Below, in pieces: positions 1,260-19,846 of a stretch of DNA of 32,000 nt. The notes under the pieces are model-generated. The model had not been told where the DNA came from and searched no databases. It saw nothing but the letters and a program-made list of their open reading frames with translations. Positions within the stretch are counted from its first letter, which is position 1; every line of letters starts with the position of its first letter. Source of the stretch: Pseudoalteromonas translucida KMM 520 (GTDB lineage Bacteria > Pseudomonadota > Gammaproteobacteria > Enterobacterales > Alteromonadaceae); NCBI RefSeq assembly GCF_001465295.1, contig NZ_CP011034.1:3090001-3122000 (forward strand), written 5' to 3'. The translations under genes were made by a program, and so were the position numbers.

Positions 1260-2026
1260 ATTGCGTATTGGTAACTAAACCCTAATGCCTCAATGGCTGA
1301 GCCTAGCACTTTGCGCTCAGCCGTATCTGCCCCCGTAAAGCGTGGCATTTCGCCGCCATGTTGTTGGCATTTTTGCGCATAGTAATCGCGCTTACAAGGA
1401 TGCGCCGGATTAACTACATTATAAATGCTCTGCCCTTGATGCCAATGCTCAAGCACCGCAAAAATAGCGTTAATCACGTCTTGCTGATGCACCATATTAA
1501 CGACTTGCTCGGCAGAGGTATTTAGCTCTTTTCCTGCAATAAAGCGCCCAGGCTCTCTATTGGGCCCAACTAAACCAGCTAAGCGTAGCACTTTACCGTT
1601 TTGCTCTAGTACTTGCTCTTCAGCTTCATATAGTTTTATTTGTCGCTCGTTTGTACACGAAATATCGCTGCTTTCGCTATATACACCTGGCTCTTGATCG
1701 TACACTCCCGTTGATGAGCAAAGTAAAAAGCCTTTAGCATTCAATTTTTTTGCCAGCGTAAGTGCCGCCGTTAATGTTTGCGCATAATTACTTTCACTGT
1801 GGCGACTACGTGGAGGAATAGCGTACACCCAGTAGGCATTTTGTAAATCAATTTGATGCGTTAACTGGCCATTTTCTAGCAAAAACTGGCGTTCAAAATC
1901 ATGTTCATGCACTGCTGAGCGGTGTGTACCCTGCACTTGCCAACCTGCTTGCTGTGCATTAACGCATAAAGCACTGCCTAGCCAACCCGCGCCTAGTACC
2001 ACTAAGTTGTTACTCTGATGATTCAA
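1256..2026 (-). CDS. NAD(P)-binding Rossmann-fold protein (SDR / epimerase-like family)
   Basis: 256-aa ORF with an N-terminal GxGxxG-type motif ([10 protein letters not shown]). The start at 2026 is TTG; a GTG 8 codons downstream is an alternative. Its stop overlaps the hutH stop within TTAA (convergent genes). Confidence 0.7.
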
Positions 2027-2138: not shown

Positions 2139-4174
2139 ATGCTAAATAATTTATCATTAAGAAAAAAAATATTATTATTGATTGGCGGAACAATTACTAT
2201 TTTACTGCTCATTGCCTCTACTTTTTTTGTTAACCATATTGCCAAACTATCCAGAGTTAATATAGAGCGTGAGGCTCAAAGCTACTTACAAAGCGAGCAA
2301 TTATCAATGCAAAGTTACTTTGCTATATACGGTAAAGTGGTTGCTACCTTTATTAATAATCCGCATTTAGTGAATTTTTTTACCGCATGGGATAAGCGCG
2401 ATCAAGCCCTAGAAAATGCCAACGGCTACTTGGCTATAAATCAAGACTTTGTACGCATAAGTGCAAATGATGAAAATATTTTATCCGCTTTTTTTGCCTC
2501 CGCCACTACCGGCGAATACTTTAAAGAAAACGAGCGTACAGCTTATTATAATGGCGAACCTTACTACGCGTACAAACGAGGTTGGTGGCAAGAAGCAATG
2601 CAAATTAATAAGCTTTACGTAGGCCCTATTTCGGTAGACTTAACCACCGGCGATGCCTCAGCAGTTGTACAACAACCCGTTTATAACCCGCAAGGCAAAT
2701 TAATTGGTGTAGGCGGCGTTGACTTACAACTTAATAAAATTAACGACATGGTCGAAAACATTCGCTTTAACGGCCAGGGCTATGGCTTTTTATTAGATGA
2801 TCAACAAAAAGTAGTGCACTTTTCAAAAGCATCTGGCCATAAACTCTCTATCACCGACGAAGGCCCTAACGGTAAAGACGGACTCGATGCGCTTGAACAA
2901 CAATTTAATAATACCTCAGGGTTTAAAACACTTAACAGCGCAATGCAAAATAACCTCGCGGGTAGCCAAACTGTTATGCTTAAAGGCGAGCAATTTTATG
3001 TGGTTTATAACCGCCTACAATTAGAGCAGCCTCATTTAAATTGGTATGTGGGCTTATTAATTCCAACCAGTATGATTGAAGCCCCGGTAAATGCTGCGGT
3101 TACAACCACTACGACCGCCGTTATCATTATTTTAGTGATTATTTTAGCGATGATTTTATGGGCCACCCATATGATTTCAAAACCAATCACCACACTCACG
3201 CATATTATGCGCGACATTGCTTCTGGCGAGGGTGATTTAACCCAAAAAATTAATATTGATAGCCAAGACGAAGTAGGCCAACTGGCTAATCATATGAATA
3301 CCTTTATTGATAAGTTGCGAGCGATGATGCTAGACACCGCAGCGCAAGCTGAGCAATTAAGTGCCGCTGCCGATCAGCTTAAAACGGTATCGCAACAAAC
3401 AAATTCAGAAATTCAGAAATTCAGCAAGAAAAACAACAAGTAGATAGTGTTAGTGCAGCGGTGACAGAAATGGCCACAACCGTGCAAGAAATATCACGTA
3501 ACGCGCAACAAACAAATACCGCAGCAGAGGAAGTACAAGCAATTACTGCCGATGGTGCAAGCCGTTCAAGCCAAGCACAAAGTGTAATGAGTGCGCTGGC
3601 TGAACATATTGGCGAAGCCTCTAAGGTGGTTGCCGGACTTGAGCAAGAAAGTAATAACATAGGCGCACTGGTTGATGTAATTAACTCAATTGCCGATCAA
3701 ACCAACTTACTCGCGCTTAATGCAGCCATAGAAGCGGCCCGCGCCGGAGAACATGGCCGCGGCTTTGCCGTTGTTGCCGATGAAGTTCGCTCTTTGGCGA
3801 GTCGTACACAAGAGTCAACCGACGATATTCGCAATATGATTACCCGTTTACAGCAAATTGCTCAGCAAGCCTCAAGCATGATGCTACAAGGGCAAAAGCA
3901 AACCGAAGAATCTGTGTTGCAAACACAAGAAGTACTTAGCTCACTGCAAAGCATTGCCCTGTCGGTAACTAAAGTACAAGATCAAAGTCATCAAATTGCC
4001 ACCTCTACCGAGCAACAAACGGTAGTAGCAGAAGATATTAATACCAGCCTTAGTGCCATTAATAGCTTAGTTAATAGTACCGCAGAGCATGCACACACAC
4101 TAGCCAATGAAGCGCATGATTTAAGTGACCTTGCAGAGGCATTAAATAAAACGGTAAACCAGTTTAAACTATAA
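2139..4174 (+). pseudogene. Methyl-accepting chemotaxis protein, frameshifted (split into ORFs 2139..3443 and 3461..4174)
   Basis: The first ORF carries an N-terminal TM, a Cache-like periplasmic domain, a second TM (AVIIILVIILAMILWA) and a HAMP domain. The second ORF, in another frame, carries the MCP signalling hairpin ([35 protein letters not shown]). Removing one copy of the AAATTCAG x3 repeat at 3401..3424 joins them into ...[32 protein letters not shown]..., a protein of about 675 aa. Confidence 0.85.
3401..3424 (+). repeat. Perfect tandem triplication of the octamer AAATTCAG at the MCP frameshift point
   Basis: Read directly: copies at 3401-3408, 3409-3416 and 3417-3424. Because 8 mod 3 = 2, two copies would restore the reading frame. 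Confidence 0.95.
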
Positions 4175-7372: not shown

Positions 7373-7771
7373 ATGACTAGTATAATTGTAAATGTGGCTG
7401 TTGGCGTAATTAAAAAAAATAACGCTCTGTTTATTTGCAAGCGAGCAAATGATCAACATCAAGGAGGTTTGTGGGAGTTTCCTGGTGGTAAAATTGAAGC
7501 CGGTGAAAGTGTTTTTAGAGCACTTAAGCGTGAACTTCAAGAAGAGATTGGCATCACTATTTTTAGCTCCAGTGAGTTGCTAACAATAAAACACGATTAC
7601 GATGATAAAACGGTAAAGCTGAACGTGCATGTGGTGAGTAACTTTAGTGGTGAAGCACATGGCGCAGAAGGGCAAGATAATGCTTGGGTAAGTATTGACG
7701 AGCTAGATAACTACGAGTTTCCAGCAGCTAACGCCGATATTATTAGCGCTATAAAAGCGAAATATATTTAA
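7373..7771 (+). CDS. mutT: 8-oxo-dGTP diphosphatase (Nudix hydrolase MutT)
   Basis: Nudix box GGKIEAGESVFRALKRELQEEIGI. ATG 7373 is preceded by a GGGAG Shine-Dalgarno 6 nt upstream. Conserved position after secA. Confidence 0.85.
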   Translation: MTSIIVNVAVGVIKKNNALFICKRANDQHQGGLWEFPGGKIEAGESVFRALKRELQEEIGITIFSSSELLTIKHDYDDKTVKLNVHVVSNFSGEAHGAEGQDNAWVSIDELDNYEFPAANADIISAIKAKYI

Positions 7772-7841
7772 CGCTTAATATTTGGCTATATTCATCTAGT
7801 AAAATAATAATAACAATAAACCGCCATTATTAGGCAGCTAT

Positions 7842-7877
7842 AAAAAGGCCAGCAAGTTAACACTTGCTGGCCTTTTT
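7842..7877. terminator. Bidirectional intrinsic terminator between convergent mutT and the M13 peptidase gene
   Basis: AAAAA-GGCCAGCAAG-TTAACA-CTTGCTGGCC-TTTTT: a perfect 10-bp stem flanked by an A-run and a T-run. Confidence 0.85.
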
Positions 7878-14926: not shown

Positions 14927-15511
14927 TTACTTGTCTTCTTCGTCTAACCATTCGTTAGCAAGATCGTTCGATAAATACTGATCGAAGTCTGAATTACTTT
15001 CTTCGCTAAAGTCATCTTCAAACTCTTCTTCATCTTCATCCTCGATACCAAGCAATTTACACAATGCTTGATGACGAGCAATACGACTATTAAAGTACTT
15101 AGCGTCTTTACCCGTTAGCATTTCGCCATTCTCATGACGCTCTACTAATTTAAGTAAGCGCTCATCATTTTCAAGTGCTTCTAGCTCTTGCTCAGGCGTA
15201 AACTCTGGCTCTGCTGACTTTTTAAGCTCAACAGTTGGCTTTAAGTTACGTTTTATTTCTACTTTAGGTGCAGCTGCAACAGCTATTAATGGCACTGGTT
15301 TTTTACTGCCAATGCGTTTATCTTTAGTTCCCGTGTTACTTTTTTGGCTATCATCATTTAATAGCTCAGGTGTATTACGAGATCCAGGCTTAGCACCTTT
15401 GGTTTTTTTAACACGTTGCTCTTTTAATGCACGCATTTCTTTAAGCTTATCTTGGCTTAAACGTACTGGTCCATTTGCTGGGCTTTTGCGTGACTTTTTA
15501 GTTCTACTCAT
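14927..15511 (-). CDS. yihI: Der GTPase-activating protein YihI
   Basis: Basic N-terminus (KGAKPGSRN, DKRIGSKKPVPL) and an acidic C-terminal tail, matching E. coli YihI as recalled. Confidence 0.88.
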   Translation of the reverse strand: MSRTKKSRKSPANGPVRLSQDKLKEMRALKEQRVKKTKGAKPGSRNTPELLNDDSQKSNTGTKDKRIGSKKPVPLIAVAAAPKVEIKRNLKPTVELKKSAEPEFTPEQELEALENDERLLKLVERHENGEMLTGKDAKYFNSRIARHQALCKLLGIEDEDEEEFEDDFSEESNSDFDQYLSNDLANEWLDEEDK

Positions 15512-15680
15512 ATCTTGATCATCTCACTTAAGAGGTTTTGGGCGAGGCGCAAATCAATGGGCATCGCAATGCTGGCCTAGCCAGAAGAATTCAGTTTGCG
15601 CTTTAGAGGCTGGGTTTCTCTATTTAGCGCTTAAAACAGCTTACTGCTCGTTTTTAAACGGTGGCTATTGTAACAGGACA

Positions 15681-15715
15681 AATAAAAAGGCGGTAGAGAA
15701 AACATCTCTACCGCC
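15681..15715 (-). terminator. Strong intrinsic terminator of the GGA-rich sRNA candidate
   Basis: Minus strand reads GGCGGTAGAGA-TGTTT-TCTCTACCGCC-TTTTTATTT: a perfect 11-bp stem followed by a U-run. Confidence 0.88.
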
Positions 15716-16044
15716 TACTAATCTGAGCGCCATTATCTGGACACTTCTCCCTTCGACTTTTTAGTCTTTATTATTGTTATTATTTTTACCTATCCCTATT
15801 ATTATTATTTTTACCTTCCGTGTAGCATTCCATTTTGTTTTTATTATTAAACTTCCATGAGTTTTTATTATTTTCGGTCTTCCTAACGCTTTTTTGTTAT
15901 TTCCTTTGCTAGCACCAATTTGTGCTATGTAGTCGTGTCGCGCTACTGTCCTTATAGCTTATTCCATTTTGTTATTGTTTTTTGCGACAGGGGTTAATGT
16001 ACCTGTTAATAATTTTGTTACAACTAATTTATATATCTTTTATT
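15683..16044 (-). ncRNA. Candidate CsrB/CsrC (Rsm)-family CsrA-sequestering sRNA, about 360 nt
   Basis: ORF-free. There are 9 GGA motifs on the minus strand within 15748..15965 and none on the plus strand (AUGGAAU x2, AAGGACA, AAGGAAA, UAGGAAG, AUGGAAG, ACGGAAGG, AGGGAUAGG, AAGGGAGAAG). Some sit in hairpin loops (GCUA-UAAGGACAG-UAGC at 15942..15958; AAACU-CAUGGA-AGUUU at 15849..15864). A 13-nt internal repeat AACAAAAUGGAAU occurs at 15827..15839 and 15961..15973. The unit has its own TATAAT and terminator. It is upstream of yihI in the same orientation, as csrC is in E. coli. The 5' end is only predicted. Confidence 0.6.
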
Positions 16045-16050
16045 AAAAGG

Positions 16051-16056
16051 ATTATA
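16051..16056 (-). promoter_or_regulatory. Putative -10 hexamer (TATAAT within TTATAAT) for the GGA-rich sRNA
   Basis: Minus strand reads ...GTGTTTTTTG-TTATAAT-CCTTTTAA. The -35 is poor, which is usual for activator-dependent Csr/Rsm promoters. Confidence 0.45.
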
Positions 16057-16112
16057 ACAAAAAACACAAAAACCATTACATTACATCAAGTTAACAATTT
16101 AATACTTTTAAA

Positions 16113-16130
16113 AATAAGACTTATCTCACA
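16113..16130 (-). promoter_or_regulatory. UvrY/GacA-box-like upstream element TGTGAGATAAGTCTTATT
   Basis: The left half TGTGAGA is identical to the E. coli csrB box TGTGAGAGATCTCTTACA (from memory), and the right half TCTTATT matches 5 of 7. It is centred about 77 nt upstream of the predicted TSS. An additional TGTAAG half-site lies at 16149..16154. Confidence 0.4.
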
Positions 16131-16186
16131 GCTATGCATGGTCAATGTCTTACATAAATAAAGACTATAAAAGTAATTTTAAGCAC

Positions 16187-16213
16187 AAAAAAAGCAGCCT
16201 AAGCTGCTTTTTT
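16187..16213 (-). terminator. Intrinsic terminator after cytochrome c4 (palindromic A/T flanks)
   Basis: AAAAAA-AGCAGC-CTAA-GCTGCT-TTTTT. Confidence 0.8.
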
Positions 16214-16261
16214 GTACATATTGTAGTTTATTACATTAATAATAATTAAATAAATACAACT

Positions 16262-16894
16262 TTAGTGTAAGCCACCTAAGTACTGTGAAAGTACTTCAAT
16301 GTCTTTATCTGTTAATTTCTTTGCAATATCTTGCATCACACCATTTAAATCATTTTGGCGTGTGCCATCACGAAATTTTTCAAGTTGCGCTTTAACGTAA
16401 CCTGGATGCTGAAAAGAAACTTTTGGAAATTTTGCAAGTGACGAGCCATTACCACGGGGGCCATGACATGCAGCACATCCTGGAATACCACGATCTGCAT
16501 CACCTGCTTTGTAAAGTATTTTACCGGTTTCAACTACGTCTTTAGGCGTAGCTTCTTCGCTCATGTTTAGTGATGCAAAATAAGCCGACAAATCTTTCAT
16601 ATCCTGTTCGCTTAATGGCATAGCCATTGCGCTCATAACCGGATCCATACGACCTTTTTTGCCACCGGAGGTCATACCTAGTTTTAAGTCTTGAAGTTGC
16701 TTATAAATATAATCGGCATGTTGACCCGCAAGCTTAGGATAGATATTAATCGGTGCATTACCGTCTGGGCCGTGACAAGCCGCACACGTTACTGATTTTT
16801 CTTTACCTGCGTTTACATCGCCTTCAAATGCTGTTGCGTTGCTTGCTGACAACGCACCAAGCAATATAGTTAAAGATAGTGCTATTTTTTTCAT
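16262..16894 (-). CDS. Dihaem cytochrome c4
   Basis: Signal peptide (MKKIALSLTILLGALSASNATA). Two CxxCH haem motifs (CAACH twice), one in each of two similar domains. Confidence 0.9.
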   Translation of the reverse strand: MKKIALSLTILLGALSASNATAFEGDVNAGKEKSVTCAACHGPDGNAPINIYPKLAGQHADYIYKQLQDLKLGMTSGGKKGRMDPVMSAMAMPLSEQDMKDLSAYFASLNMSEEATPKDVVETGKILYKAGDADRGIPGCAACHGPRGNGSSLAKFPKVSFQHPGYVKAQLEKFRDGTRQNDLNGVMQDIAKKLTDKDIEVLSQYLGGLH

Positions 16895-19376: not shown

Positions 19377-19522
19377 GACGAATTCCTTCTATAAATGAAC
19401 AATACCCGCATTCATCAGAACCACAAATGAATAGAAAGTACTTTTTATGAGCTTATGATGGTATCACCTAAAGGATTAAGTGTAATTATAGAATAATAAA
19501 TGGGGAATAATTAAGGTTAAGA

Positions 19523-19556
19523 ATAAAAAACGGCCCATCAAATATATGATAGGCCG
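19523..19556 (-). terminator. Strong intrinsic terminator of the polA-downstream sRNA candidate
   Basis: Minus strand reads CGGCCTATCA-TATATT-TGATGGGCCG-TTTTTTATT: a 10-bp stem with one G-U. Confidence 0.85.
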
Positions 19557-19671
19557 GTATAGCAAACTGGGGAGAAGCTATGAATAATTGCATCTTCGCA
19601 GATGCATCATCAACAGGATGTCCTACAGGATGAGGACGGCGCGACTTTAACAAAAGCCAGCGCACTAGTAC
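19526..19671 (-). ncRNA. Candidate independent sRNA (about 146 nt) downstream of polA, at the position equivalent to spf
   Basis: Bounded by a near-consensus sigma70 promoter and a strong terminator, and separated from polA by polA's own terminator. Predicted hairpins are GCGCUGGCUUU-UGUU-AAAGUCGCGC and GCAUCU-GCGA-AGAUGC (GNRA loop). CU-rich single-stranded stretches are present (CCGUCCUCAUCCUGU, CAUCCUGUU, CUUCUCCCC). No sequence similarity to E. coli Spot 42 is visible by eye. Confidence 0.5.
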
Positions 19672-19677
19672 AATAAA

Positions 19678-19706
19678 ATTCTAGATAATTTGTGTATATT
19701 TGCCAA
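19678..19706 (-). promoter_or_regulatory. Sigma70-type promoter TTGGCA-N17-TAGAAT
   Basis: Minus strand has -35 TTGGCA (19706..19701), a 17-nt spacer, and -10 TAGAAT (19683..19678). The predicted TSS is near G at 19671. Confidence 0.55.
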
Positions 19707-19800
19707 CACCTTATGATTTAACATAGGCCTTTTCTTTGGTTAACTTTTATGTAACTAAAGCGACTATTTATTTAAGTAATAAATATTTTTAAACTGGCAT

Positions 19801-19828
19801 AAAAAAAGTGCCCTTAAGCACTTTTTTG
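19801..19828 (-). terminator. Intrinsic terminator after polA (A/T-flanked, bidirectional shape)
   Basis: AAAAAAAGTGC-CCTTAA-GCACTTTTTTG. Confidence 0.72.
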
Positions 19829-19846
19829 TCATTTTATTATATAAAC

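Follow-up and report, generated by a model that had tools for sequence, protein, structure and literature searches.

The gap between yihI and the cytochrome c4 gene of Pseudoalteromonas translucida very probably encodes the CsrC-class small RNA Pf3

Locus and gene context

We analysed a 32,000-nt stretch of Pseudoalteromonas translucida KMM 520 (NZ_CP011034.1, positions 3,090,001 to 3,122,000), referred to here as the window; all coordinates count from its first letter unless another sequence is named. The window contains a gap of 750 bp (15512..16261) between yihI (14927..15511) and the di-haem cytochrome c gene for cytochrome c4 (16262..16894), both on the minus strand. A preliminary description of the sequence had proposed a Csr/Rsm sponge RNA in this gap, at a locus equivalent to that of csrC in E. 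coli. An end-to-end alignment with a published RNA as well as synteny support this proposal, and we are confident that a small RNA (sRNA) of the CsrC class is encoded in the gap, namely the Pseudoalteromonas orthologue which was published as Pf3 in P. fuliginea.

As had been noted before, the gap carries no credible open reading frame (ORF), apart from a mechanical one of 59 aa with a TTG start on the plus strand. Pfam identifies the products of the flanking genes as YihI (PF04220), a cytochrome c of the di-haem type, a GTPase of the EngB type and HemN. Judging by homologues of YihI, the window belongs to Pseudoalteromonas. Its YihI is identical to CAI87799.1 and its cytochrome c4 to CAI87800.1 (Q3IJF1_PSET1), two successive proteins from the TAC125 group. 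The gene order around the sRNA, cytochrome c4 - sRNA - yihI, is that of P. fuliginea; the sRNA is located ~170 nt upstream of yihI and shares its orientation. RefSeq annotation of E. coli MG1655 gives the order yihA(-) csrC(+) yihI(+) hemN(+), which confirms the earlier statement that the placement of csrC between yihA (engB) and yihI, in the orientation of yihI, is kept here.

The predicted sRNA covers 15682..15988 on the minus strand (~305 nt), with the 5' end set by the putative promoter treated below and the 3' end in the U-run after the terminator. Its predicted fold has a minimum free energy (MFE) of -56.6 kcal/mol (z = -3.2). The 5' domain (15936..15989) is closed by a stem of UGUCGC (15989..15984) and GCGACA (15941..15936), such that the first bases of the RNA form part of this conserved stem; it encloses a single-stranded first GGA motif and the hairpin GCUA-UAAGGACAG-UAGC presenting the second. 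Next to the 3' end an almost invariant module, GACUAAAAAGUC-GAAGGGAGAAGUGUCC...GGCGCUCAGAUUAG, is found at 15717..15767. It is followed by a Rho-independent terminator (15679..15716; stem 15716..15688, then UUUUUAUUU), whose stem consists of 12 bp with seven G-C pairs and a 5-nt loop and runs into TTTTTATTT. Hairpin and U-run had been recognised before, yet with a stem of 11 bp.

The sRNA corresponds to Pf3

Pf3 is an intergenic Csr sRNA of P. fuliginea BSW20308 with nine GGA motifs (Duan et al., Commun Biol 2025, PMC11882849). The evidence given there comprises electrophoretic mobility shift assays with CsrA, GFP fusions to its own promoter, a heterologous glycogen assay, deletion mutants and RNA immunoprecipitation sequencing (RIP-seq) with CsrA. 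Pf3 was bound by CsrA in vitro and in vivo, its promoter was active and it relieved the CsrA-mediated repression of glycogen synthesis. In the CsrA RIP-seq it formed the third-strongest peak in the wild type and the strongest one in a Pf1 Pf2 double mutant (PMC11882849).

Supplementary Data 1 of that study locates the 460-nt Pf3 at NZ_JJNZ01000017.1 37490-37948. In our set of loci this reference is found at 2374..2832 of locus L007, directly upstream of yihI (3001..3591) and on the same strand. The window aligns with P. fuliginea Pf3 from the upstream box to past the terminator, at 90.9% identity over 373 nt (blastn: 90.885%, 27 mismatches, 4 gaps, query 91-460, window 16045..15677, E = 2e-142); Duan et al. 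accept as homologues those matches to the 460-nt Pf3 that reach 75.6% identity or more with E < 1e-5. Locus, strand relation to yihI, nine GGA motifs, terminator and upstream box are common to both. Thus nucleotide match, position downstream of cytochrome c4 and upstream of yihI, and the number of about nine GGA all agree with the Pf3 family. The two differ in species, the window belonging to the TAC125 / P. translucida / P. nigrifaciens group, and the upstream 90 nt of the reference, which represent promoter DNA, have diverged from the window. Since the published 460-nt unit begins at the upstream box, it includes non-transcribed DNA.

The row for NC_007481.1 in Supplementary Data 1 (PMC11882849) has alignment statistics identical to those of the window. 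As the statistics and the flanking proteins are identical to the TAC125 group, the window sequence has already been catalogued as a Pf3 homologue. The "genome description" column of that table is seemingly shifted relative to the accessions, NC_007481.1 being labelled P. prydzensis DSM 14232 and NZ_JJNZ01000017.1 P. haloplanktis ATCC 14393; here only accessions and coordinates should be trusted.

Much earlier, a study which found csrC homologues always near yihI and yihA had predicted a "csrC" for P. haloplanktis, located between PSHAa2751 and PSHAa2752 and sharing their strand (Kulkarni et al. 2006, PMC1488887). Orientation and stated neighbourhood fit PSHAa2751 and PSHAa2752 being the genes that flank the gap in the window. 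The synteny argument of the preliminary description is the very argument used by Kulkarni et al. for csrC. The features on which their prediction is based are all found here: an intergenic position, a concentration of AGGA/ARGGA, a Rho-independent terminator, GGA in loops or free regions and a conserved upstream site of the type seen at csrB, csrC or rsmY. The sRNA is not undescribed, as the 2025 supplement lists exactly this sequence. It is already known, predicted in 2006 as csrC in TAC125 and validated in 2025 as Pf3 in a sister species. The present analysis adds a corrected promoter and 5' end, the orthology with csrC, the occurrence in Rheinheimera and in every Pseudoalteromonas locus studied, and the AAN tracts with their fixed phase described below. 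From the 91%-identical orthologue we infer that the copy in the window would likewise act as a CsrA sponge.

GGA motifs and structure are conserved across the genus

Nine predicted CsrA-binding motifs of the type A(N)GGA are located on the minus strand within 15748..15965. The GGA triplets occupy 15748-50, 15793-95, 15817-19, 15829-31, 15854-56, 15881-83, 15902-04, 15949-51 and 15963-65; numbered from the 5' end of the RNA, their first G is at 15965, 15951, 15904, 15883, 15856, 15831, 15819, 15795 and 15750. The plus strand carries no GGA in this span, the nearest ones being at 15739 and 16049. A count thus bears out the nine minus-strand motifs in 218 nt reported before. Sliding a 218-nt frame over the whole window yields a maximum of nine at this site, a next-best value of six and a mean of ~1 per strand. 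The expectation of 2-3 GGA given earlier was too low: mononucleotide shuffles of the 218 nt contain 4.4 +/- 1.7 (P(>=9) = 0.009). By itself the enrichment is moderate, weak evidence. It is the positional conservation that makes the case compelling.

Using the window sequence as a query, nhmmer detected an orthologue upstream of yihI in 75/75 fetched Pseudoalteromonas loci (E 1e-76 to 1e-14), which is broader than the occurrence of Pf3 in 69.9% of genomes based on BLAST (PMC11882849). Conservation and covariation were scored on an alignment of the 70 distinct copies. Each of the nine GGA sites is conserved in position in 55-70 of the 70 orthologues, nearly always in the context A-N-GGA, while the identity of YihI falls to 50% across the genus. 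The copies contain 8-11 GGA in sense and 1-3 in antisense orientation. A comparison of orthologous gaps had been named beforehand as a test of the proposal, and within Pseudoalteromonas the positional conservation agrees with it.

In the predicted fold the GGA sites have a mean unpaired probability of ~0.8, compared to 0.59 over the RNA as a whole. According to local folds, sites 2, 4, 5 and 7 are mainly presented by hairpin loops, sites 1, 3, 6 and 8 are mainly single-stranded and site 9 is paired. Both hairpins named in the preliminary description, GCUA-UAAGGACAG-UAGC and AAACU-CAUGGA-AGUUU, are present. Its statement that several motifs sit in short hairpin loops agrees with the local folds for those four sites; in folds of the whole molecule just part of the GGA falls into loops, and such folds are noisy when started from the 5' end assumed at that time.

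For the covariation analysis a structure was derived by hand from the window, consisting of the 5' stem, five hairpins that present GGA or act as spacers, the 3' hairpin and the terminator. On the alignment 89.9% of its cells are paired compared to 34-51% with slid partners, a measure that is biased towards any structure derived from a single member of the alignment. The compensatory counts are free of that bias. Compensatory changes are found in 18 pairs, and the observed values were reached in 0/500 shuffles. In the 5' stem 98.3% of cells are paired and all changes are compatible with wobble pairs; the hairpin inside it shows compensatory changes in 4/4 pairs. For the 3' hairpin (alignment columns 358-382) 99.8% of cells are paired, and AGTCGAAGGGAGAAGTGTCC within the 3' module is identical or nearly so in 70/70 sequences. 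The terminator is paired in 99.7% of cells, with compensatory changes in 5 of the 11 pairs tested. As the MAFFT alignment does not bring the variable hairpins into structural register, RNAalifold called just three helices on it.

In the P. denitrificans group a tandem array of a 46-nt unit is inserted at the place of the variable hairpin of other species, with 7.3 copies and 89% matches in Pseudoalteromonas sp. C2R02 (locus L062, 2249..2595) and a further array in L063; single copies of the unit occur in L045 and L064. Each unit folds as CUGAAU...AGUUCAG with UCC instead of GGA in the loop, and as the units carry UCC, the RNA of this group has about as many UCC as GGA. Such an array might shield GGA motifs or serve as a binding site for some other factor.

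Outside the genus, a GGA-rich sRNA with terminator was observed in Rheinheimera soli (locus L076, 1824..2290; also L077 and L078) in the order cytochrome c4 - sRNA - methyltransferase - yihI. It is preceded by two perfect UvrY/GacA palindromes, TGTGAGATATATCTCACA and TGTAAGACATCGCTTACA. A Pf3 profile detects this sRNA with E = 5e-5, and the family therefore extends beyond Pseudoalteromonas.

Promoter, upstream boxes and orthology with csrC

Upstream of the RNA two blocks are invariant in 70/70 sequences, GTTGTAA with the presumed -35 hexamer TTGTAA (16018..16023, minus strand) and G-TA-n-ATTA with the presumed -10 hexamer, which is TACATT in the window (15996..16001, minus strand) and TAAATT or TAGATT in relatives. 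The 16-nt spacer between them varies in sequence and never in length. Invariant hexamers around a variable spacer of fixed length represent the signature of a promoter rather than of an RNA. We aligned the csrC upstream region of E. coli with those of the window, P. fuliginea, two distant Pseudoalteromonas clades and Rheinheimera, and three blocks were found in register, namely an upstream box (box B below), a -35 and a -10 element. The -35 elements read TTGTTT (E. coli csrC), TTGTAA (window) and TTGCCA (Rheinheimera), the -10 elements GCGTAAAGT, AGGTACATT and GAGTAGATT, respectively. In E. coli GCGTAAAGT is placed 7 nt ahead of the +1 annotated for csrC, and this +1 aligns with G15988. Hence we infer a promoter at 16023..15996 and a transcription start site (TSS) near G15988, from which an RNA of ~305 nt would result. 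A transcript of ~360 nt had been expected before, starting from TTATAAT (16057..16051) as -10 element. This motif is present in the window and is not conserved in orthologues, so the earlier assignment is probably wrong and the length would have to be corrected.

Further upstream is box B (16137..16154, minus strand), a putative UvrY/GacA inverted repeat of the csrC type with the sequence TGTAAGACATTGACCATG. It agrees with the mapped SirA site of Salmonella csrC, TGTGAGACATTGACCATT, in 16/18 positions. The UvrY site of E. coli, TGTGAGACATTGCCGATA, is similar to it, and in Rheinheimera TGTAAGACATCGCTTACA is the counterpart of box B. The centre of box B is at -157.5 from the presumed TSS, that of the E. 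coli site at -159.5. Both Pseudoalteromonas and Rheinheimera have kept this box. The equivalent UvrY/SirA site of csrC was mapped by ChIP-exo and footprinting (Zere et al. 2015, PMC4682653). Located 23 bp downstream of box B is box C (16113..16130, minus strand, centre at about -133), a second putative UvrY/GacA-type box. Its sequence TGTGAGATAAGTCTTATT is the one that the preliminary description had likened to such a site; it matches TGTAAGN6CTTACA in 9/12 specified positions, and the orthologues keep TGTRAG-N6-CTTAT. A third site, GTGAGATATATCTCAC, forms a perfect palindrome in distant clades and Rheinheimera and has decayed in the clade of the window.

Based on these signals, a sigma-70 promoter (-35 16023..16018, -10 16001..15996) would be activated by a response regulator of the GacA/UvrY type, binding to the tandem inverted repeats ~130-160 bp upstream (16154..16137 and 16130..16113). 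Transcription would then proceed from near G15988 to the terminator at 15716..15688 and yield the ~305-nt RNA. Four or five of its nine A(N)GGA motifs would be displayed in loops of short hairpins and the others in single-stranded A-rich stretches, where CsrA dimers could bind and thus be titrated off their mRNA targets. The dependence on GacA/UvrY in this strain is deduced from the boxes and is accordingly putative.

The resemblance to CsrC of E. coli and Salmonella (RF00084) comprises the position between yihA/engB and yihI, the orientation of yihI, multiple GGA and a terminator. It includes the promoter as well, which in both consists of a -35 element TTGTnn, a 16-nt spacer and a -10 element G-TA-A-nT 7 nt before +1. 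The gene neighbourhood is that of csrC, and the putative UvrY/SirA inverted repeat, ~160 bp upstream of +1 in csrC, matches in sequence and position. Differences are the number of GGA (14 in CsrC, nine in the RNA of the window), the G+C content of 33% with long (AAN)n spacers, which CsrC lacks, and the cytochrome c4 gene between engB and the sRNA. The preliminary description saw no primary-sequence similarity to enterobacterial CsrB or CsrC, and the Rfam models confirm this. A Pf3 profile did not find E. coli csrC either (E = 0.56, wrong strand). Seen from the sequences, locus and control region are orthologous to csrC and the RNA body has turned over, since the Pf3 profile finds the Rheinheimera sRNA and not E. 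coli CsrC, and since the Rfam model of CsrC scores so low in the window (10.9 bits). The earlier idea of a lineage-specific family member has to be modified in view of a promoter and UvrY site homologous to those of csrC and an RNA homologue in Rheinheimera. Pf3 is the positional and promoter-level orthologue of CsrC, with the UvrY site at equal distance, and not a novelty specific to the genus. This orthology would tie the Csr system of Pseudoalteromonas to the BarA-UvrY paradigm.

A twin motif, AAAUGGAAU-(3-4 nt)-ACACGGA, is common to Pf3 (window 15833..15817) and E. coli CsrC (locus L079, ~1645..1666). The local alignment reaches a score of 28, with a shuffle maximum of 29. The motif may be due to chance or a remnant of common ancestry.

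CsrB, RsmX, RsmY and RsmZ are sponge RNAs of like action, with many A(N)GGA in unpaired stretches and loops, a terminator and, upstream, an activating sequence for GacA/UvrY. They differ by their loci and match the window neither in sequence nor by covariance model. A scan of the whole window against Rfam at gathering threshold gave no match; filtered by E-value instead, it yielded nothing but matches below that threshold, which fell on A-rich stretches and terminators. The sRNA is not filed under RF00084, although locus and promoter point to orthology. As Pf3 is missing from Rfam 15, annotation pipelines keep leaving the gap empty. The alignment of 70 sequences together with the structure could seed an Rfam family.

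Several points weigh against a CsrC-class CsrA sponge at this site. The excess of GGA over local composition is just about two-fold (P = 0.009), and MFE folds of the whole molecule place only some GGA in hairpin loops. The Rfam model of CsrC (RF00084), whose gathering score is 61, matches only at the 3' end, with 10.9 bits and E = 1.2, and the model of CsrB finds nothing in the window. The evidence for CsrA binding pertains to the orthologue of P. fuliginea and not to the exact sequence of the window, and both RNA ends in this strain are predicted from sequence signals. Concerning the 5' end, an alternative -10 element, TATAAAT (16033..16027), is fairly well conserved. It is possible and ranks second to TTGTAA-N16-TAnATT, which is preferred because of its pattern of invariant blocks around a variable spacer and its alignment with E. 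coli csrC.

A-rich tracts and a possible role of Hfq

Six (AAN)n tracts are interspersed with the GGA motifs on the minus strand (15768..15982), namely at 15982..15969, 15901..15891, 15872..15862, 15848..15835, 15812..15799 and 15787..15768. Of the 31 matches to (AAN)3AA in the 32-kb window 12 fall in these 215 nt, with 8.5 expected window-wide. Five tracts were examined on the alignment (all but 15901..15891). The AA of their triplets is invariant or nearly so, mostly in 70/70 sequences, and the third base is free (U, C, A or G); a phase-free permutation test gives p < 5e-5. Unpaired probabilities of the tracts are 0.80-0.92 in the predicted fold. Three tracts lead into a GGA with constant phase, as (AAN)k-A-N-GGA, which accounts for the 13-nt module AACAAAAUGGAAU; this module had been reported to occur twice and indeed does so.

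The distal face of Hfq recognises A-R-N triplets by A-specific, purine-specific and non-discriminating sites, and CrcZ of Pseudomonas titrates Hfq via six A-rich stretches (PMC4063720). It is conceivable, and we put it forward only tentatively, that the sRNA is bifunctional, with the six tracts binding the distal face of Hfq in addition to CsrA at the GGA motifs. In that case the RNA might, with some doubt, be stabilised by Hfq or co-titrate it in the manner of CrcZ. The strict triplet phase in five tracts, the accumulation of (AAN)3AA matches and the predicted lack of pairing agree with this idea, as does the 3' end with terminator and U-run, the usual proximal-face site. RsmY of P. aeruginosa is bound and stabilised by Hfq. 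Similarity to CrcZ (RF01675) is limited to the motif. Several unpaired (A-R-N)n tracts with n >= 3 are typical of CrcZ and six such tracts are found here, yet CrcZ has no GGA array. Its model yields three weak local matches in the sRNA (best 18.8 bits, E = 0.011), which favour the Hfq hypothesis to a degree and lie far below the gathering score of 95. These matches reflect the A-R-N motif only and represent a resemblance, not membership.

Other points speak against binding of Hfq. It is proposed from the motif pattern, the study of Pf3 makes no mention of Pf3 being bound by Hfq (PMC11882849) and our literature search found no paper reporting Hfq binding to a Pseudoalteromonas Csr sRNA. The tracts may instead stem from an (AAT)n microsatellite and be kept as unstructured spacers holding the GGA single-stranded, and long AAN runs are missing from the Rheinheimera homologue and from E. 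coli CsrC. The Pf3 authors mentioned AAT-rich stretches just as the source of zebrafish "homologues" and discussed crosstalk of Csr and Hfq in general terms, not for Pf3 (PMC11882849). These zebrafish sequences are most simply low-complexity AAT matches. A scaffold or sponge for two proteins, with the AAN tracts, held in strict triplet phase by purifying selection, for Hfq and the GGA for CsrA, and with a GacA-controlled coupling or an Hfq-dependent stability, is thus a speculative extension which we hold to be less probable than a CsrA sponge with A-rich spacers. If true, one GacA-controlled RNA would couple two global post-transcriptional regulators, CsrA and Hfq, or need Hfq for its stability. 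The triplet-periodic A-rich spacers in any case provide a concrete lead on crosstalk between Csr and Hfq.

Another (AAN)5 tract, AATAATAATAACAATAA, is located on the plus strand at 7803..7819, in a short gap after an ORF ending at 7771 and just upstream of a terminator hairpin at ~7849..7875.

The element is independent of yihI and non-coding

As the sRNA has the orientation of yihI and lies ~170 nt upstream of it, the region might represent a long 5' leader of yihI with the GGA motifs acting in cis, and some read-through of the terminator is possible. This is very unlikely. The terminator is strong and conserved with compensatory changes, and Pf3 expressed from a plasmid acts in trans (PMC11882849). 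Moreover, in Rheinheimera as well as in the pigmented clade of Pseudoalteromonas the gene for a methyltransferase of ~200 aa intervenes between the terminator and yihI, and there the sRNA stays beside cytochrome c4 and keeps its terminator. Hence the sRNA is an independent gene and not a yihI leader.

The intervening gene encodes a SAM-dependent methyltransferase (PF13489) and was seen in loci L042, L047, L065 and L074 (~2330..3000) and L076 (2300..2947). It is not present at this locus in the clade of the window, which suggests its loss in the non-pigmented lineage.

The 3-nt periodicity could also reflect a small coding ORF, e.g. an AUG at 15833 leading to MECYTEGKNNNNRDR. A 15-codon ORF in the window, similar ORFs of 14 codons in close relatives and the triplet-periodic conservation would be in line with this. 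However, 19/70 orthologues have ACG or AGG in place of the start codon, the peptides vary from 2 to 23 in length without conserved sequence, and the AAN phase is tied to the downstream GGA rather than to a reading frame and recurs in separate tracts. We therefore rejected the small ORF as an explanation and assign it a negligible probability. That the GGA cluster is a functionless chance feature of an A+G-rich spacer, as the 4.4 GGA given by local composition alone might suggest, is refuted by the conservation data, i.e. nine sites held in position where YihI falls to 50% identity and stems that co-vary, as well as by the experimental validation of the orthologue (PMC11882849), and deserves hardly any credence.

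Further elements in the window

Directly after the cytochrome c4 gene and upstream of the control region of the sRNA a hairpin with symmetric A-run, stem and T-run, AAAAAAGCAGCTTAGGCTGCTTTTTTT, is found at 16188..16214. It looks like the terminator of cytochrome c4 and draws several spurious sub-threshold Rfam matches to sRNAs.

A further intergenic region of 470 bp (19377..19846) gave no significant Rfam match. It carries six GGA on the plus strand including two CAGGAUG. On its minus strand a promoter-like site (19706..19678, 10/12 matches) and a strong terminator (19556..19531) are predicted, and these signals could give rise to an sRNA of ~145 nt containing CCUCAUCCUGUAGGACAUCCUG.

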